Assembly (NCBI RefSeq): GCF_913055835.1
Contig: NZ_CAJXKQ010000008.1
Coordinates: 28,981 to 92,980 of the forward strand
Length of the DNA stretch: 64,000 bases
Source of the DNA: an uncultured Marinobacter sp.
GTDB taxonomy: Bacteria > Pseudomonadota > Gammaproteobacteria > Pseudomonadales > Oleiphilaceae
Reading direction: 5' to 3'
Shown: piece after piece, positions 50-8,289 of the stretch
Layout of the letters: each line of letters opens with the position of its first letter
How positions within the stretch are numbered: the first letter of the stretch is position 1
Made by a program: the position numbers and the translations under genes
Notes under the pieces: generated by a model
What the model saw: the letters and a program-made list of their open reading frames with translations, nothing else
Told to the model about the DNA's origin: nothing
Databases searched by the model: none

Positions 50-1537
50 TCAAAAGCCTTCCGGCTGAACAAATCCAGCCAGCCCCGCTTCTTCCAGCAG
101 TCCCGCAAACCCGATCGTCGTCAGATCCATCCCCGGTGCCCCGATCACCTGAACATTGAATGGCAGGCCCTCGGTCGTCCGTCCCATGGGTACGGAAGTG
201 GCGGGCAGTCCCAGCAGGGTGGCGAAGGCGATCCAGCAGAACTGGTCCATGTAGGCTCGTGGCTGGCCGGCGACGGTGATTCGGCGTTTGAAGACCGGGT
301 GGGTGTGGTCATGCCGGATGGCGGTGGTTGGTGTTACCGGCGTTAGTAGAACGTCCACTTCCTGAAACAGGGATTCGATTTCAGCCCGCATTTTCTCGCG
401 CATTTCGTTCCAGGCCATCCATTGGTGAACCGGTTGATTCACGCCCCGTCCGTATTCACCCACAAAAGGCGTCATCGGACCCAGGAACTTGAGCCAGGGT
501 TCCAGCCGGGCGATCCATTTCATCTGCCGGCGCTGGGCGGGTTTCAGGGACGTGCTGAGCAGAGTCCCGAGCAGATTGAAGTAAGCGGGCAGGATATGCT
601 CGAGGCTGAGCAAAGGATGGCTGGCGTCGGTGACCAGTGCGCCCCGTTCAGCCAGTGACTTGCCCAGGGCCTGATAGCCCTTGGTCAGTTCCTGCTCGAC
701 CGGGCACAGGGGGTCTTCCAGCCATAAACCCACCCGGGCCTGGTCGAGGCTTTGCAAGTCTGATGGCGCCATGTGAAGCGCCCAGCTTCGTTCCTCGGCT
801 GGCCGTGGCCCGGCAATGACTTTCAGCAAAAGCTCCAGGTCCCGCGCGCTGCGCGCCATCGGGCCGCCCTCGACCAGGTCGGGTCGGGATTGGGTGCCGG
901 GTGGTCCGGGTATGTGGCCGCGAAATGAGACGAGGGAACGGGTTGGCTTGTGGCCGAACACGCCACAGAAATGGGCCGGTGTGCGAATGGAGCCGGCCAG
1001 ATCACTGCCCACTTCGAGAGGCGTCATGCCGGCGGCCAGGGCAGCCGCTGCACCGCCCGAGGAGCCCCCGGGAGTGTGTGCCGGGTTATGGGGGTTGTTG
1101 GTAACCCCGAACAGCTTGTTGTAGCTCTGAAGGTCCGTGGCGTAGATGGGCACATTGGTTTTGCCCAGGATAATGGCGCCGGCGTTTTCCAGCCTCTGCA
1201 CCACATCAGCGTGGCGTTCCGGCTTATGGGTTCTGAGGGCCGGCGCGCCGGCGGTGCAATTCATACCTGCCACTTCCCAGGTGTCTTTCAGGGTAAGCGG
1301 TAGTCCGTGGAGAGGGCCTTTCACGGCGTTGGCTGCACGTTGTTCATCGGCCTGACGGGCGCTGGCGAGTGCCCGCTGTTCATCCAGGGTCACGACGGCA
1401 TTGATGGCCGGATTATGCTCGCGTATGCGGTTCAGCAGAGCAGTGGTCAGAGCTTCGCTGGTCAGGGTGGGGGCCTCCAGCTGTGCCAGAAGCTCATGGG
1501 CCGATTGATAGTGCAATGGCACTTGTGATGCATCCAT
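50..1537 (-). CDS. Amidase-signature family amidase
   Basis: 495 aa; LKDT (catalytic Lys), GGSSGGAAAA and GSDLAGSIRTPA (Ser-cisSer-Lys triad motifs). Confidence 0.92.
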   Translation of the reverse strand: MDASQVPLHYQSAHELLAQLEAPTLTSEALTTALLNRIREHNPAINAVVTLDEQRALASARQADEQRAANAVKGPLHGLPLTLKDTWEVAGMNCTAGAPALRTHKPERHADVVQRLENAGAIILGKTNVPIYATDLQSYNKLFGVTNNPHNPAHTPGGSSGGAAAALAAGMTPLEVGSDLAGSIRTPAHFCGVFGHKPTRSLVSFRGHIPGPPGTQSRPDLVEGGPMARSARDLELLLKVIAGPRPAEERSWALHMAPSDLQSLDQARVGLWLEDPLCPVEQELTKGYQALGKSLAERGALVTDASHPLLSLEHILPAYFNLLGTLLSTSLKPAQRRQMKWIARLEPWLKFLGPMTPFVGEYGRGVNQPVHQWMAWNEMREKMRAEIESLFQEVDVLLTPVTPTTAIRHDHTHPVFKRRITVAGQPRAYMDQFCWIAFATLLGLPATSVPMGRTTEGLPFNVQVIGAPGMDLTTIGFAGLLEEAGLAGFVQPEGF

Positions 1538-1582
1538 GGATGTTCTCTTTGTTGTTGGTTTCTGGAAAATCCCGCCGGTCTG

Positions 1583-2590
1583 TCAAGGCAACTCGGATCG
1601 CCAGTGTTTTACCTTTACCTGCCCCTTGATCGCGTCGATGATCTCGATAATCAGGTTGATCAGCGCTTCGTTCTGGGCCTCATTGGCTCTTACTTCACCG
1701 GGTGTCGGCAGGAAGACGTTCACGATGTCTTCAATAAAGGCATGGTTGGAGGCTGAGGCGAGGTCTTCGAGAATCTGGTGTATCACATGGGCAACGATAT
1801 CGCCCACGGCCTCTTCAAGGGTTTCCTGTATGGTGGGACCAACCACCGGCAGGTATTTCAGTCGCGACAGTTCCAGATTTTGCTTGAGGGCGTTGTCGAC
1901 CCGGTCCTCCAGATAGCTTCGCAGCGCTCCGCGGTTGGGTACGTAGCCTTCCTGGGCTGCCTCGGCAACCCGCTTGGATATCCAGTCTGAGAGCATGTCC
2001 CTGCGGGGATAGAGAATGTCCTCCTGGATCTTGTCAAACAGCGGTGAGCCCCGTTTGACTTCCTGCTGCACGCCACTCAGCACCTTGAGCACAATGCGGT
2101 CCGAAAGTTCTTCCATAAAGGCTTCGTAATAGAAATTCACGAACCGGTAGATCTTGGTGTTCGTGATATCGATGATCTTGTACTGGTGCAGGCGGTAGAT
2201 GATCGAGATTACCCGCAGAATACGGAGGAAACGCAGGCTTCCAACCGGAATACAGCCCACCAGGTCGTACCAGTGTATGAACGGGTAAAAGTACCAGCGG
2301 TCGTAGACCTTGGCCCTGATGGCGTAACCCCAGCGAATAAAGAACTCGGTCAGGAAGATGCTCACGAAGATCAGATCGTAGAAGATGAAGCGTTCGTGAA
2401 TGGGGTGGTAGGCCGACTGAATGGCGGGGGCGTGTTCTTTCAGAAGATTCTGAACAGCAACAAAGTTATAGATCGAGTCCCAGATAATGAACGCAAGGTT
2501 GATGATCAACAGCCCCAGCATCAGGAAATCAATGATGAACCAGATAAGCTGATGGCTCGATTTCAGGTTTTCTCGATTTATCTTCAGCAT
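1583..2590 (-). CDS. Membrane protein with an S1-S4 voltage-sensor-like domain and soluble C-terminal helical domain (ion-transporter-like, no pore)
   Basis: 335 aa; four N-terminal helices with IFLTEFFIRW (S2), WYDLVGCIP (S3) and LRFLRILRV (S4 RxxRxxR); no later hydrophobic S5-P-S6 segment. Confidence 0.7.
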   Translation of the reverse strand: MLKINRENLKSSHQLIWFIIDFLMLGLLIINLAFIIWDSIYNFVAVQNLLKEHAPAIQSAYHPIHERFIFYDLIFVSIFLTEFFIRWGYAIRAKVYDRWYFYPFIHWYDLVGCIPVGSLRFLRILRVISIIYRLHQYKIIDITNTKIYRFVNFYYEAFMEELSDRIVLKVLSGVQQEVKRGSPLFDKIQEDILYPRRDMLSDWISKRVAEAAQEGYVPNRGALRSYLEDRVDNALKQNLELSRLKYLPVVGPTIQETLEEAVGDIVAHVIHQILEDLASASNHAFIEDIVNVFLPTPGEVRANEAQNEALINLIIEIIDAIKGQVKVKHWRSELP

Positions 2591-2776: not shown

Positions 2777-4531
2777 ATGCTATCAATCTACCAAGTTGTG
2801 AATTCGGGCCGGGTCCGGCTTCTGATCCTCCTGCTCTGCTGGCTGCCGTCGTGGGTCTTTGCGCAACAGGTGGTTGTTAATATCGAAGGAGACTATCCAA
2901 AGCTGAAATCGAACGCTGAGGCCTTCATTGGTGAGGTTGAAGGTCGAAGTGCCGGCAACCTGAGGCGATATGCCCCCACCGCTGTAAATCAGGCCCGGGA
3001 AGCCTTGCGTGCCTTGGGGTATTATGGCCCCCTGGTTGACTGGCGGTTAGAAGAGGGCGACTCGGACACAACGGCGACCCTCACCCTGTCCATTACCCCG
3101 GGTGAGCCGGTAAGAGTTACCTCCCGTATCGTGGGGATACGGGGCGAAGCTGCGTCTGATTCAAGGTTTACCTCTGATCTGCCGCCACATCCGGCAGAGG
3201 GCGATATTCTCAATCACGGCGACTACTCCAACCTGAGAGACACCATCCAGAACCGTGCCCGGCGCAGGGGGTATTTCGACGGCCGGTTTGTCACCCGCTC
3301 CCTGGAGGTGGATCCGACCGAGCGCAGCGCCGAAATTACGCTCATTTATGAGAGCGGCCAGCGATACCGGTTGGGAGAGGTTACCTTTGAAGAAGGGCAC
3401 TGGTTTGAGATTGAGCTTCTGAGGGATTTCGTCACCTTTGAACCGGGAACCCCCTATCACGCCGACGAAATAGCGCGGCTGAACAAGGATCTTCTGAACA
3501 GCGGCTACTTCAGCAACGTTGACGTCAATATCTCACCACAGGATGCCGAAAACGGGGTCATTCCTGTTAGCGTTGCCCTTTCCCGGCGCGAAGCGCGCTC
3601 GGTAGCCGCCGGTGTCGGTTTCTCGACCGACGTTGGTCCCCGGTTCCGGGGCACCTGGCGGGAGCATTGGATTAATCCCATGGGGCACAAGCGGGGAGCC
3701 GAAACGGAGCTATCGGTGCCTCGTCAGAACCTGAGCACCTGGTACGAGTTGCCCCTGGATCCTCCCATGACGGATCTGATCCGTCTTACCGCCGGATATC
3801 AGCGGGAGGATATCGAGAATGTTGAATCGGAACTTCTTACCCTTGGGCAGCAATGGCAGCATCAGCTTGATAACGGGTGGCTCCAGGTTCTGTCATTACG
3901 CTGGGAAGGCGAACGGTTCAATATCGGCAATGATGAGAAAGGTACGAGCACACTGTTGCTCCCGGGAGCTGGTTACTCGAAGATTCACGCGGATTCACCT
4001 CTGGACCCGTCCCGCGGCTACCGTTTGCAGCTGGATGTTACCGGCTCTCATCGGGCTGTGCTCTCGGATGTCGACATCCTGCACGTTAACGCCCTGGCCA
4101 AGGGGCTGTTTACCATTGCCGGCAAGCATCGCTTTGTCGGACGCTTTCAGGCGGGAGCCGTTGCCACAAACCAGTTCTCGGATGTGCCGCCGTCCCTGCG
4201 CTTTTTTGCTGGTGGCGATCAAAGCGTCCGGGGCTATGGTTATGAAACCCTTTCGCCTGAAAATGACAATGGTGTGCCAGTGGGCGGCCGCTTTTTGATG
4301 GTGGGTAGCGGAGAGTATCAGTACCAGTTTGCCGACCAATGGCGGGCAGCGGTGTTTGTCGATCACGGTAATGCCATTAATGATCTGAATGATCCCCTGG
4401 CAACGGGCGCGGGCATCGGCATTCGCTGGATCAGCCCGGTTGGTCCGCTGCGGCTGGACATCGCCAAAGGACTGGACCGGGAATTTGGCGGGGACTGGCG
4501 ACTTCACTTTTCCATGGGGCCTGAGCTGTGA
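2777..4531 (+). CDS. tamA: Translocation and assembly module outer-membrane subunit TamA (Omp85 family)
   Basis: Signal peptide, POTRA-like region, RFFAGGDQSVRGY motif, C-terminal ...LHFSMGPEL; 4-bp overlap with a tamB-like gene. Confidence 0.93.
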   Translation: MLSIYQVVNSGRVRLLILLLCWLPSWVFAQQVVVNIEGDYPKLKSNAEAFIGEVEGRSAGNLRRYAPTAVNQAREALRALGYYGPLVDWRLEEGDSDTTATLTLSITPGEPVRVTSRIVGIRGEAASDSRFTSDLPPHPAEGDILNHGDYSNLRDTIQNRARRRGYFDGRFVTRSLEVDPTERSAEITLIYESGQRYRLGEVTFEEGHWFEIELLRDFVTFEPGTPYHADEIARLNKDLLNSGYFSNVDVNISPQDAENGVIPVSVALSRREARSVAAGVGFSTDVGPRFRGTWREHWINPMGHKRGAETELSVPRQNLSTWYELPLDPPMTDLIRLTAGYQREDIENVESELLTLGQQWQHQLDNGWLQVLSLRWEGERFNIGNDEKGTSTLLLPGAGYSKIHADSPLDPSRGYRLQLDVTGSHRAVLSDVDILHVNALAKGLFTIAGKHRFVGRFQAGAVATNQFSDVPPSLRFFAGGDQSVRGYGYETLSPENDNGVPVGGRFLMVGSGEYQYQFADQWRAAVFVDHGNAINDLNDPLATGAGIGIRWISPVGPLRLDIAKGLDREFGGDWRLHFSMGPEL

Positions 4532-7500
4532 CGCAGACACCGGAAACGTCCGACGACAAGCATCAGCAGCAACCGGCTCGCCGGCACCGCCTGCGCTTCT
4601 GGCTGCTTGTGTGTCTGGGGCTTCTGTTCCTGGTGCCCGTTTTGTTGCTGGCGGCTGTCTTGCTTGCTCTGCGTTCCGAGACCGGAACTGCCTGGGTCAT
4701 AGAACAGGTGCCGGGGCTACAGGTCGAAAATGACCGCGGTTCACTATTTGGCCAGTGGCAGGCTGACCACCTGCAATGGCGTGGCTACGGGGTTGAAGTC
4801 ATCGTTGAATCCCCGCTCGTGGACTGGTCGCCTTCCTGCCTGTTGAAAAAGCAGCTTTGTGTCGAAAGCCTGAGGGCAGAGACCCTCGAAGTCACACAGT
4901 TGCCTCCTGCCGACAAGTCCGGAAGCGGGGGCGCAATCACGCTGCCGGGCGTGGACCTGCCCCTTGGGCTGAATATCAGCGGCGTCCGGATGGGGCCTTT
5001 CACCTTGAATGGTAACAGGGTCTGGGACCGGCTTGAGCTGGATGCCGGTGGGTCGGGTGCTGACTGGAGGATCGACCGCGCCTGGTATCAGTTGGGCGAT
5101 TACACCGTGTCCGCCGCCGGGCGGATCGAGACCCGACGGGATTGGCCCGTCAATCTGGAGGTCACCGCGGATATTCCGCCACCCTATGGTGACCAGTGGA
5201 TGCTGGACGCCATACTCTCTGGCAGCGTGCGAGACCTGATGGTGGAGGTCACGAGTCGCGGTTATCTGAATGCCGAACTCTCCGGGGAAGTCGAACCGCT
5301 GGATCCAAGCCTGCCGGCAAAACTTCGGATTACCTCTGAACAGTTCCGGGCAGTTGAGACCCTGCCGGAGACGCTGGTGCTCAACGACTGGTTCCTGGAA
5401 GCCCGTGGCAGCCTTCAGAGAGGTTTCCAGACCCGGGGTCAGGCCAGGTTGCCCGGCACAACGGGGCCGGTGCAGCTGACACTGGAGGGGCGCGTTACCA
5501 CACAGGCAGCCGAGAATATCCGTATTGAGCTGGCCACCGATGGGGAGAATGGCAGTGAGCGGGATACTGTGGTGGCCAACGGGCGTGTGGCCTGGAGTGA
5601 GGGCCTGGAGGCCAGCACCGATGTGCGCTTGCGTGGGTTTCCCTGGTACACCCTGGTTCCGGGCCTTGAAGAGCCTGCGGTTGTGCTTCGGTCGCTGGAT
5701 GGCACCGCCTCCTGGCGGGAGGGAAGCTACCACGCAGAGCTTGAAGCCGGGGTCGATGGCCCTCAGGGGAGTGCTGAACTGTCGACAACTGTCGATGGTG
5801 ACACCGAGCAAACCAAACTGACCGATCTGAGGATCAGTACCGGCGCCGGATCGCTTACCGGGAAGGGCTCGGTGAACTTTTCCGGGCCGCTATCCTGGCA
5901 GGCGGCGCTGGCCCTCCAGGATTTCAACCCGGGTTACTGGGTGCCGGTCCTTGAAGCCAGCCTGAGTGGCGATGTCACTACCGAAGGGCAGCTCGGAGAC
6001 GGCCCTATACCTGCCATGAGCGCCAACTGGGACCTCAAGGGTGACTGGCGCTCCAATCCCGCGTCTCTTGAAGGAAGCCTTGATACTTCATCCGGTAGCT
6101 GGGAGTTGTCCGGGCTGAATCTGGTGATTGGTAACAATCGGGTGGAAGGAAGTGGCACCTGGGGCAATCTGTTGCGCGGTGACCTGGCCCTGTACTTGCC
6201 CGAGCCCGAGATCGTTCTGCCCGGCCTGACCGGTAATCTTGAAGCGACCTTGATGGCTGAGGGAACGCCAGAGCGCCCGGCGGGAGAGCTGAAAGCGAGC
6301 GGCCAAAACCTTGCCTGGCAGGATCAGCTATCCATTGAGACCCTGAGCCTGGATGCCGAACTGGAAGACGGGCTGAGTCTTGCAAGCCGGCTACGGGCCG
6401 AGAATCTCCGGGGATTCGGCCAGGACCTTGAAACGCTCACGCTCCAGGCGAACGGAACCCCGGGGCAACACACATTGAGTGTGAGGGCTGAGCATTCCGA
6501 AGCAGATCTGGAGTTGGCGTTTGAGGGTGGGGCTGGTTCTGAATGGAAAACCTGGCAGGGTCAGCTCTCGAGCGGTCTGATCAATCTTCCGGAGCAGTCC
6601 CAGCGATGGCAGCTGGAATCGCCGGCGACCCTGGACTATGGCGCCAATGGAAAGCTGGCCTTCGGTAACCATTGCTGGCGCTGGCAACAGAGCACCGTCT
6701 GCGCCGATGATCAGACACTGCTACCTGTTCCCGATATCGCCTATCGCATCGACCGGTTCCCAACGGTGGCCCTGGCACCCTTGTTGCCGGAAACCGTGCG
6801 CTGGAACGCGCGGTTAAATGGCGAGATTGATTTTACGACGACAGCGGAAGGCCCGGATGGTCGGGTTTATCTTGATGCCGGTGACGGCGAGTTCCAGCTG
6901 TTGGTCGATGGTGAGTGGGAATCACTGGACTATGATGCGTTTACCACCGAGGTTGCGTTCAAGCCTCAACAAGCCGATGTCGCCGTTCGTCTGTCCGGTC
7001 CCGAGTTGGGCAGATTTACCCTGGATATGGGGCTGGACCCGAACTCCGAAAACCGCAATGTTGAGGGATCCTTCAATCTGGAAGGGCTGGATATTGCCCT
7101 TGCCGGGCTGCTGTCAGGGCTTGATGAGGTGGCGGGGCAGGTAAACGGCCAGGGTCAGCTTTCAGGCCCGCTGATGAAACCAGCTGTAACCGGCGAATTG
7201 CACCTGGTGGATGGACGGGTTTCAGATCCCCGGTTGCCGGTGCCCATTGAGGAGATGATTGCCAGTATCGAATTCTCGGGATATTCGGCACAAATTAGCG
7301 GCAGAATCCAGAGCAATGCCCGAAGTAAGACCATCCTGGATGGTGAGGTCGACTGGCAACAGGCGCCGCGGGGGGAAATCCGCATCTCCGGGGAGCGGAT
7401 ACCGTTCAATGTTGAGCCTTATGCCCAGCTTGAGGTAGAGCCGGATCTGACTCTTGTGTTCCGGGAGGGAACCCTGGAAATCGTTGGACAGGTTGCCGTT

Positions 7501-8289
7501 CCGAGAGGGGATATAGAAATAAAGGGGCTACCTGAACAGGCTGTGTCGGTTTCCGAGGATGAAGTCATCGTCGGTGTCGAGAGGGAGGAGCCCGTAGTCC
7601 GTTCACTCAACATGGATGTAAAGGTCGTAGTAGGGGAAGATCAGGTGACGTTTGCCGCCTTCGGCGTGACGGGCGATCTGGAGGGCTCCCTCAGGATCAG
7701 CAACGATATGGACACCCGGGGCACGCTTCAACTGGTCAATGGCCAGTATGAGGCCTATGGTCAGGAGCTCGAACTCAGGCGTGCCAGGCTGCTGTTCGTC
7801 GGTAACCTGGCTCAACCCTATCTCGATATCGAGGCCGTGCGGCGGGTGGATACCGTGGTTGCCGGTATACGTCTGACGGGGCCGGTGCAATCACCGGAGA
7901 CGGAGGTGTTCTCCAACCCGGATATGCCGCAGACAGATGCATTGTCCTACGTGATCCTGGGCAGGCCCCCCCAAAGCCAGGGTGACGAAGGTCAGATGAG
8001 CCGGGCGGCGCTTTCGTTGGGGCTGACCCAGGCCAGCAAGGTGACCGGGCAGATTGGCGAGGAGTTCGGTATTCGCCAGCTGACTCTTGAGGCAGAGGGC
8101 TCCGGCGATCAGACGTCGGTGGTGGCCAGCGGTTACCTCACGGATGAGTTGAGCGTTCGATACGGTGTCGGCATCTTTGAGCCGATCACCACCGTTGCCT
8201 TACGCTATGATCTGGGCCGGTACTTCTACCTGGAGGCTGCCAGTGGGCTGGCGGCCTCCCTGGATATCTTCTATACGCGGGATTTCTGA
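4528..8289 (+). CDS. tamB: Translocation and assembly module TamB (DUF490)
   Basis: 1253 aa; N-terminal TM anchor, long beta-rich body, C-terminal YGVGIFEP...LRYDL...SLDIFYTRDF. Confidence 0.93.
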   Translation: MTQTPETSDDKHQQQPARRHRLRFWLLVCLGLLFLVPVLLLAAVLLALRSETGTAWVIEQVPGLQVENDRGSLFGQWQADHLQWRGYGVEVIVESPLVDWSPSCLLKKQLCVESLRAETLEVTQLPPADKSGSGGAITLPGVDLPLGLNISGVRMGPFTLNGNRVWDRLELDAGGSGADWRIDRAWYQLGDYTVSAAGRIETRRDWPVNLEVTADIPPPYGDQWMLDAILSGSVRDLMVEVTSRGYLNAELSGEVEPLDPSLPAKLRITSEQFRAVETLPETLVLNDWFLEARGSLQRGFQTRGQARLPGTTGPVQLTLEGRVTTQAAENIRIELATDGENGSERDTVVANGRVAWSEGLEASTDVRLRGFPWYTLVPGLEEPAVVLRSLDGTASWREGSYHAELEAGVDGPQGSAELSTTVDGDTEQTKLTDLRISTGAGSLTGKGSVNFSGPLSWQAALALQDFNPGYWVPVLEASLSGDVTTEGQLGDGPIPAMSANWDLKGDWRSNPASLEGSLDTSSGSWELSGLNLVIGNNRVEGSGTWGNLLRGDLALYLPEPEIVLPGLTGNLEATLMAEGTPERPAGELKASGQNLAWQDQLSIETLSLDAELEDGLSLASRLRAENLRGFGQDLETLTLQANGTPGQHTLSVRAEHSEADLELAFEGGAGSEWKTWQGQLSSGLINLPEQSQRWQLESPATLDYGANGKLAFGNHCWRWQQSTVCADDQTLLPVPDIAYRIDRFPTVALAPLLPETVRWNARLNGEIDFTTTAEGPDGRVYLDAGDGEFQLLVDGEWESLDYDAFTTEVAFKPQQADVAVRLSGPELGRFTLDMGLDPNSENRNVEGSFNLEGLDIALAGLLSGLDEVAGQVNGQGQLSGPLMKPAVTGELHLVDGRVSDPRLPVPIEEMIASIEFSGYSAQISGRIQSNARSKTILDGEVDWQQAPRGEIRISGERIPFNVEPYAQLEVEPDLTLVFREGTLEIVGQVAVPRGDIEIKGLPEQAVSVSEDEVIVGVEREEPVVRSLNMDVKVVVGEDQVTFAAFGVTGDLEGSLRISNDMDTRGTLQLVNGQYEAYGQELELRRARLLFVGNLAQPYLDIEAVRRVDTVVAGIRLTGPVQSPETEVFSNPDMPQTDALSYVILGRPPQSQGDEGQMSRAALSLGLTQASKVTGQIGEEFGIRQLTLEAEGSGDQTSVVASGYLTDELSVRYGVGIFEPITTVALRYDLGRYFYLEAASGLAASLDIFYTRDF

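Follow-up and report, generated by a model that had tools for sequence, protein, structure and literature searches.

The voltage-sensor domains (VSDs) of BacNav (NaChBac, NavAb) and Kv channels share a four-helix topology, with Asp, Phe, Glu and Arg in S2, Asp and Pro in S3, and an arginine at every third position of S4. According to a 2023 review, all known prokaryotic VSDs are accompanied by a pore domain, and pore-less sensors of the Hv type are a eukaryotic invention that is absent from prokaryotes (PMC10377628; PMC13095418). Here we analysed a 64,000-nucleotide stretch of DNA (the window) from an uncultured Marinobacter sp. (contig NZ_CAJXKQ010000008.1, positions 28,981 to 92,980), in which the gene at positions 1583..2590 encodes a protein with a VSD-like N-terminal half and no pore domain. 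The family of this protein would break the stated rule, as its members are pore-less sensors of the kind known from VSP, Hv1 and TMEM266, but are bacterial and carry a novel cytoplasmic domain. Judged from sequence comparison and predicted structures, we consider the protein, with a probability of about 0.6, to be an inner-membrane potential sensor with a non-channel output, in which a divergent, genuine VSD is fused to a helical cytoplasmic domain.

Comparison with the described systems revealed both shared and distinct features. The four-helix topology of the BacNav and Kv sensors and their S2, S3 and S4 residues are found in register in the Marinobacter protein. In contrast to these channels, it has no S4-S5 linker, S5, P-loop or S6, carries three instead of four in-register S4 arginines, and has an S3-S4 linker of 4 residues; its S3 is short and rich in aromatic residues (WxxxPxxxWYD), and Asp21 is conserved in S1. 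The best analogy for its working mode is Ci-VSP/TPTE, in which a single VSD without a pore leads from S4 straight into a cytoplasmic domain. Unlike these proteins, the family is bacterial, its C-terminal domain is all-helical with no PTEN or C2 match, and any enzyme involved would be encoded separately (an amidase) and in one clade only. The CX5R phosphatase motif is absent because residues 146-335 contain no cysteine, and the C-terminal domain gave no Pfam match to a PTEN-like phosphatase. Hv1, too, is a VSD protein that lacks a pore and has a helical C-terminus, but the Marinobacter protein lacks the RxWRxxR signature and has a 190-residue multi-helix C-terminal domain, not a single coiled coil; in S1, Asn31 stands at what we take to be the site of the Hv1 selectivity Asp (D112 in the human protein). 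TMEM266 (HVRP1) likewise combines a VSD with a cytoplasmic C-terminal region, has no pore and no known effector function (PMC6392501); it differs in being eukaryotic.

The putative voltage-sensor half

Conservation was counted in an alignment of 102 full-length representatives, which are ~23-51% identical to the query. The S1 sequence is LIWFIIDFLMLGLLIINLAFIIWD (residues 15-38), with Asp21 conserved in 96/102 members, Asn31 in 90/102 (Asp in nine) and Asp38 in 85/102. The S2 segment IFLTEFFIRW (residues 78-87) ends in the invariant W87 (102/102); position 82 is Glu or Asp in 101 members, position 79 is Phe or Tyr in 95, and F75, D72 and R86 are kept in 96, 92 and 79, respectively. In S3, which includes the segment WYDLVGCIP (residues 107-115), and just ahead of it, W99, P103, W107, Y108, D109, G112 and P115 are each conserved in at least 90% of the members, with Asp or Glu at position 109 in 101/102. 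The S4 segment LRFLRILRV..YR (residues 119-133) follows after a linker of only 4 residues and retains R120 in 88/102, R123 in 100, R126 in 101, and Arg or Lys at position 133 in 100. Three arginines at positions 120/123/126 are by far the commonest pattern among the representatives, and position 129 is occupied by a small residue (Ser, Ala, Gly) in most members. The elements of a charge-transfer centre are therefore present, namely an S2 aromatic three residues ahead of an acidic residue, an S3 Asp and the outer acidic residues D38 and D72, together with an S4 basic residue at every third position that is kept among homologues. The spacing D72-x6-F79-x2-E82-x3-R86 equals what we take to be that of Shaker E283/F290/E293/R297, and D109-x5-P115 presumably that of Shaker D316/P322. 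Such conservation in the alignment indicates that the sensor pattern is not due to chance. The S1, S2, S3 and S4 segments quoted in a preliminary description of this DNA are all present in the translation of the gene, and the conservation of the S4 arginines, which it had named as a check, was found as given above.

To compare the family with channel sensors, we aligned sequence profiles with hhalign. The probability was 52% against the BacNav-type channel of the same genome (Table 1); against a profile of 26 gammaproteobacterial BacNav channels it was 82% with the whole protein and 86% when only the sensor was aligned, with E values of 1e-5 to 5e-6 and 98-109 collinear columns spanning S1 to S4. 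A composition-matched control, in which either profile was reversed, gave a probability of 2-6% and 26-27 aligned columns. In the alignment, N31 falls on the BacNav S1 Asn and D38 on a Glu at the end of BacNav S1. F79/E82/R86 fall on the invariant Phe/Glu/basic residue of BacNav S2 and D109/P115 on the S3 Asp/Pro, with F79, E82 and D109 aligned to the invariant BacNav F64, E67 and D90. R120, R123 and R126 match three consecutive arginines of the four in BacNav S4. A 260-residue pore-less relative from another gammaproteobacterium forms a bridge between the two groups (Table 1). It aligns with the family at 97.7% probability (E 1.9e-12, 187 columns, including the LPxxG motif of the C-terminal domain), and it matches positions 4-114 of Ion_trans at 24.6 bits, the curated cut-off being 25. 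Its sensor is more canonical, with NWYE in S3 and four S4 arginines, and its C-terminal domain is truncated; it may represent a sister family. R120/R123/R126 of the query align with its R1-R3. Because its fourth arginine falls at Ser129 of the query, the S4 register of the query (R1-R3 or R2-R4) is ambiguous by one step. Among the 102 members, 23 match Ion_trans at E <= 0.1, all below threshold and the best at 6e-5, and no other Pfam family recurs.

AlphaFold2 modelled the whole protein from the 102-sequence alignment with a predicted local distance difference test score (pLDDT) of 93.4 and a predicted template modelling score (pTM) of 0.72, and the sensor only (residues 1-148, 50 sequences) with a pLDDT of 90.7 and a pTM of 0.80. 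The membrane helices of the model span residues 15-41, 68-93, 101-111 (short and broken) and 117-136. A Kyte-Doolittle scan of the query gave hydrophobic segments at about 15-38, 67-88, 100-117 and 118-137, and no stretch of transmembrane grade past residue 140. The family-averaged hydropathy showed the same four N-terminal segments, with a C-terminal maximum of 1.05 over a stretch that holds four conserved charges. The positive-inside rule is obeyed: the N-terminus is basic, as is the S2-S3 loop, whereas the loop between S1 and S2 is neutral. This places the C-terminal domain in the cytoplasm, as in channels. Hydropathy, modelled helices and loop charges predict four transmembrane helices with both termini cytoplasmic. 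A Foldseek search of the sensor-only model against 350,542 PDB chains returned only 14 matches at E <= 10, and all of them were channel voltage sensors: twelve from NavAb, one from KCNQ1 and one being the isolated sensor of KvAP. The fold check suggested in the preliminary description thus yielded S1, S2, a short broken S3 and S4, with structural matches that are all VSDs but weak. We regard a remote homology of the N-terminal half to channel voltage sensors as very likely; the domain would form an outlying VSD branch, marked by three arginines in register and by the 4-residue linker between S3 and S4.

A pore-less VSD is also the architecture of Hv1, and the VSD itself could be the permeation path, conducting H+ or cations under voltage control in the manner of Hv1 or of a gating pore (omega current), with the C-terminal helices serving oligomerisation or regulation like the Hv1 coiled coil. 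The near-invariant Asp21, the polar Asn31 with its occasional Asp at a position that the BacNav alignment identifies as the mid-membrane polar site of S1, the small residue at position 129, where the 260-residue relative has its fourth arginine, and the long C-terminal helices are consistent with such a conductance. However, S4 reads R-F-L-R-I-L-R and not RxWRxxR, and a Trp, if present, stands at R+1 and not R+2. Position 31 is Asn in the large majority of members, BacNav channels also have Ser after their last arginine without conducting, and the 2023 review recognises no Hv channels in prokaryotes (PMC10377628). The preliminary description had likewise found the Hv1 signature not evident and had taken Asn31 as the equivalent S1 position, in agreement with our profile alignment to BacNav. 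Since the Hv1 signature is lacking, intrinsic proton conduction is less likely, and we judge a conducting VSD distinctly unlikely.

The C-terminal domain, the missing pore and the family

The modelled helices of the C-terminal domain span residues 146-179, 183-193, 197-236, 251-278, 280-293 and 304-325, with pLDDT >90. The most conserved block outside the sensor, Y154-Y155-x-I-x-x-E160-E161-(I/V)-S163-D164-R165-V-V, lies directly after S4, with E160 conserved in 95/102 members, E161 in 99, D164 in 99 and R165 in 88. An LPxxG motif (Pro248, Gly251) and a C-terminal VKxW motif are also conserved. The claim that some 190 residues after S4 are soluble agrees with this all-helical, acidic domain. 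No family match was found for the domain in Pfam, NCBIfam or PDB sequences, and a Foldseek search with the whole model gave only non-specific long-helix bundles at E >= 0.5. We set aside the matches to a chemoreceptor cytoplasmic domain, SH3BP5 and toxin helices among these as generic helices; chemoreceptor homology was rejected as a generic fold match with no MCPsignal match. An NAD_binding_9 match on the query (E 0.16) was disregarded as weak, and the PDB sequence matches of the protein and of the family profile (14-3-3, pumilio and designed helical proteins, E > 0.5) were not meaningful. No internal repeat was found within the domain. Stand-alone C-domain proteins were also looked for, and the matches of ~200 residues either start within S4 or are fragments at contig ends, and hence do not represent an architecture of their own.

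Several lines of analysis indicated that no pore follows the sensor. No hydrophobic segment is present after S4, no K+ filter or BacNav filter motif was found in the translation, and descent of the C-terminal domain from a pore was rejected, as hhalign against the BacNav pore and C-terminal domain gave 1.1%. These results bear out the earlier statement that S5-P-S6 and a filter are missing after S4. No homologue with a pore-sized extension was found among the best 150 of 320 representatives (86-488 residues) or among the 120 best profile matches (326-394 residues), which answers the concern, raised with the preliminary description, that this copy might be truncated while its homologues carry a pore.

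The family is large and has a recurrent two-domain architecture of 330-390 residues in hundreds of clusters. A word-indexed search returned 793 relatives, the best 120 at 80-94% identity, and the named matches were almost all Marinobacter. An exhaustive search of 50%-identity representatives gave 320 clusters, 123 of them at E <= 1e-30; among the best 150, 101 representatives have 320-400 residues, most of them aligned over nearly the whole query, and nine have 449-488. At least 573 species gave a confirmed relative in a pattern scan that took one genome for each GTDB species. From these, 80 loci belong mostly to Marinobacter and Alteromonas and also to Tamilnaduibacter, Halovibrio, Vreelandella, a Hahellaceae metagenome-assembled genome (MAG) and a Cytophagales MAG. 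A profile search added Balneolales, Calditrichia, Flavobacteriales, Cyclobacteriaceae, Gimesia (Planctomycetota), Dongiaceae and Ketobacter, and none of the members from these added lineages has a precomputed Pfam domain. The named members thus spread over Pseudomonadota, Bacteroidota, Balneolales, Calditrichia and Planctomycetota, and the family is sparse within Gammaproteobacteria (8/400 evenly drawn genomes). The nine long variants (P0243, P0256, P0257, P0259-P0262, P0264 and P0267) retain the S1 pattern D..M......N.....FD and carry 130-150 extra residues in the periplasmic S1-S2 loop, an insert that may be a ligand-binding ectodomain on the voltage sensor; a Pfam scan of four of them (P0243, P0256, P0259, P0264) gave no match.

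The family has no Pfam or NCBIfam model, and a description of it was not found in full-text literature searches. Existing annotation calls its members 'hypothetical protein' or, misleadingly, 'ion transporter'. In UniRef, two Marinobacter orthologues (P0025, P0087) carry the name 'Preprotein translocase subunit SecA', apparently a mis-annotation that has been propagated, and further ones are called 'Ion transport protein' or 'Ion transporter'. A copy with 84% identity (P0058) lies inside a eukaryotic transcriptome assembly (EukProt TRINITY contig) and is most likely a Marinobacter contamination of that culture.

Comparison with twelve Marinobacter orthologues gave ratios of nonsynonymous to synonymous substitution rates (dN/dS) of 0.05-0.11 in the sensor half, compared with 0.03-0.19 in the C-terminal one; the gene is intact and both halves are under strong purifying selection. 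Its G+C content is 0.52 compared with 0.59 for the window, which hinted at a foreign origin; this was ruled out by the G+C at third codon positions (0.71), which equals that of the neighbouring genes, and the low overall value therefore reflects amino-acid composition. The genome holds one copy of the gene and no paralogue of either half was found in it. The same genome encodes a separate, intact, canonical BacNav-type channel of 273 residues (Table 1), and the pore-less protein and a classical voltage-gated channel thus coexist in one genome. Apart from the missing pore, nothing speaks for a truncated or decayed channel gene, a pseudogene or a mis-called open reading frame (ORF). The architecture recurs in hundreds of clusters and across the species of the pattern scan, both halves are under strong purifying selection, the C-terminal domain is unrelated to a pore, and the BacNav gene stands intact elsewhere in the genome. 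Since the two-domain architecture recurs and no homologue among those listed is pore-sized, the query is not a truncated channel; recurrence and selection already refute a decayed channel, to which we give practically no weight.

We further examined whether a pore is encoded separately near the family genes, as the preliminary description had proposed to look for. Across 95 family loci, together 1.09 Mb, we found neither a K+ filter nor a channel-like ORF with a BacNav filter, and tblastn gave no match to BacNav. An adjacent pore was thereby rejected: TLEDW matches occurred only in very long ORFs of 497-1266 residues, which are presumed to be TamB-like, judged from size alone. These loci bear on the idea that the protein is a detachable voltage-sensing subunit, which would dock within the membrane on a pore-only channel, transporter or pump encoded by another gene and confer voltage dependence on it. 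VSDs are modular, and a 2026 preprint reports functional co-assembly of a VSP sensor domain with the pore-only Kir2.1 (10.64898/2026.08.07.743441). Other weak Ion_trans pore-region matches exist elsewhere in the genome; a second Ion_trans match in it (C11) is an ABC permease and hence spurious. Against such a subunit, the 95 loci show no conserved neighbour that encodes a channel, pore or transporter, one sampled family-bearing genome has no Ion_trans gene at E <= 1e-10 (G051), and the large conserved cytoplasmic domain would be left unexplained. We therefore hold a docking subunit to be very unlikely.

Table 1. Positions of the sensor gene, its parts, its neighbours and two related genes. Positions refer to the window unless another sequence is named.
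Feature	Position	Strand	Description
Whole gene	1583..2590	-	335 aa + stop; ORF with translation; VSD, then conserved helical cytoplasmic domain
S1 helix	2468..2548	-	Residues 15-41; AlphaFold2 helix; conserved Asp21, Asn31, Asp38
S1-S2 loop	2390..2467	-	Residues 42-67; AlphaFold2 helices 44-53, 55-66; Pro55, Tyr61, His65 conserved; predicted periplasmic
S2 helix	2312..2389	-	Residues 68-93; Asp72, Phe79, Glu82, Arg86, Trp87; charge-transfer-centre-like motif
S3	2243..2293	-	Residues 100-116; short, broken; AlphaFold2 helices 101-105, 107-111; near-invariant W-x3-P-x3-WYD-x2-G-x2-P
S4	2183..2242	-	Residues 117-136; Arg120, Arg123, Arg126 at every third position; Ser129, Arg133, basic residue at 136
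Post-S4 helix	2054..2155	-	Residues 146-179; YYxIxxEE(I/V)SDRVV, the most conserved motif outside the sensor
C-terminal domain	1586..2155	-	Residues 146-335, ~190 residues; acidic (isoelectric point 5.1), all-helical, no Cys
Spacer	1538..1582	-	45 bp, from sensor gene stop to amidase start
Amidase	50..1537	-	495 aa amidase-signature enzyme; Pfam Amidase E 6e-103; NCBIfam NF004816 504 bits, cut-off 503
tamA (Omp85/POTRA) + tamB	2777-8289	+	Divergent from the sensor gene; 186-bp shared intergenic region
BacNav-type channel	G000 contig C9:79991-80641 (L001 1441-2262)	+	Four S4 arginines, TFEDW filter, coiled-coil-like C-terminal tail
Bridging relative	L129 3770-4549 (genome G253)	-	260-aa pore-less ORF, another gammaproteobacterium

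Proposed coupling of the sensor to the cytoplasmic domain

The sensor residues and the conserved post-S4 block suggest how a membrane-potential sensor of this kind might operate. R120, R123 and R126, backed by R133 and the Lys or Arg at position 136, would lie within the membrane field and would pair with the outer acidic residues D38 and D72 and the inner E82 and D109, possibly also D21, around the aromatic plug F79. Upon a change in potential, S4 would shift through the F79/E82/D109 centre, and this shift could be passed by the rigidly attached, conserved post-S4 helix with its EE-x-SDR motif to the cytoplasmic helical domain, which may respond by altering its conformation, its oligomeric state or its binding to partners. 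For the Marinobacter/Ketobacter clade, the most obvious candidate partner would be the amidase, which is presumably co-transcribed. The pore-less, voltage-sensor-like reading of the preliminary description is supported; from the conservation and the architecture we infer the voltage-driven movement of S4, the role of the C-terminal domain as output and hence the coupling of voltage sensing to an effector.

However, a number of observations weigh against a voltage sensor with an output domain. Only three S4 arginines are in register, and R120 is substituted in ~14% of the members. The short, broken S3 and the 4-residue S3-S4 linker of the model may restrict S4 travel. The query has no match to Pfam Ion_trans (PF00520) even at E <= 1, and a search of the PDB with a hidden Markov model of the family found no channel. 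The Foldseek matches of the sensor are not significant (E 1.4-8.6, TM-score 0.37-0.43, root mean square deviation 5-9 A); the low score is probably due to the extra loop helices (44-66) and the short broken S3. In addition, the term 'output domain' is an argument from architecture alone for a C-terminal domain that resembles nothing known, and the gene neighbours differ across the family.

Some of these features would also suit an evolutionary relic, in which the four-helix module is a membrane anchor or lipid-facing scaffold with a static salt-bridge network and no sensitivity to voltage. The voltage-sensor-like domains of TRP channels are such non-sensing relatives, and the short broken S3, the very short S3-S4 linker and the weak structural similarity to working VSDs are in line with this idea. 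Nevertheless, S4 charges and their countercharges normally disappear from relic sensors, whereas all charge-transfer elements are kept here at 88-100% across phyla, and the dN/dS of the VSD is ~0.05-0.1. The retention of the complete charge-transfer system between phyla speaks against a role as mere anchor, which we consider unlikely.

The amidase and other gene neighbours

The same-strand amidase that the preliminary description placed 45 bp from the sensor gene is confirmed, and it lies downstream (Table 1). No terminator-like hairpin was found in the 45-bp spacer. An amidase gene is directly downstream of the sensor gene in 8/20 diverse loci, from Marinobacter, Oleiphilaceae MAGs, Halovibrio, Vreelandella and UBA7310. 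The same order occurs in Ketobacter, with a sensor protein of 42% identity to the query. An overlap of 4 bp joins the two genes in Halovibrio/Vreelandella and Ketobacter, and one of 1 bp in UBA7310. No amidase lies beside the sensor gene in Alteromonas, in five gammaproteobacterial genomes from the even draw, or in the remaining metagenomic and MAG contigs that were inspected, other phyla included; in one Balneolales locus, an amidase-signature gene is located 3.4 kb upstream. The amidase was therefore rejected as a family-wide partner: its adjacency is confined to one gammaproteobacterial clade, and the pair thus probably forms a clade-specific operon and is not a family-wide rule. Within this clade only, the amidase is a probable operon partner.

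This arrangement would allow a more specific function, in which an enzyme made of two polypeptides is controlled by voltage, with the protein as its sensor half, and S4 and the helical domain switch the activity or the membrane recruitment of the amidase. Such a pair would be a bacterial analogue of VSP acting in trans; we consider it highly unlikely.

Other neighbours were recorded as follows. The divergent tamA/tamB arrangement is kept in several Marinobacter species (loci L005, L050, L051 and L054). In unrelated lineages, the neighbour of the family gene is an amide or C-N hydrolase of another fold (L061 7057-8082; L083 1906-3132; L117 23-1576; L065 4383-5903), examples being a papain-like amidase (C92), Amidohydro_1, an enzyme with the amidase signature at a distance of 3.4 kb and the Lnt CN-hydrolase. 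The recurrence of amide and C-N hydrolases beside family genes could be chance. Two metagenomic loci (L119 6192-8799; L122 5157-7762) have nadA and nadB, which encode quinolinate synthase and L-aspartate oxidase, after the family gene.

If the sensor works, the family would offer a way to study how bacteria sense their membrane potential with no current being passed, a compact prokaryotic model of sensor-to-effector coupling and possibly a new scaffold for genetically encoded voltage indicators. More broadly, if the protein proved to control an enzyme by voltage, the family would constitute a direct membrane-potential input to bacterial physiology.

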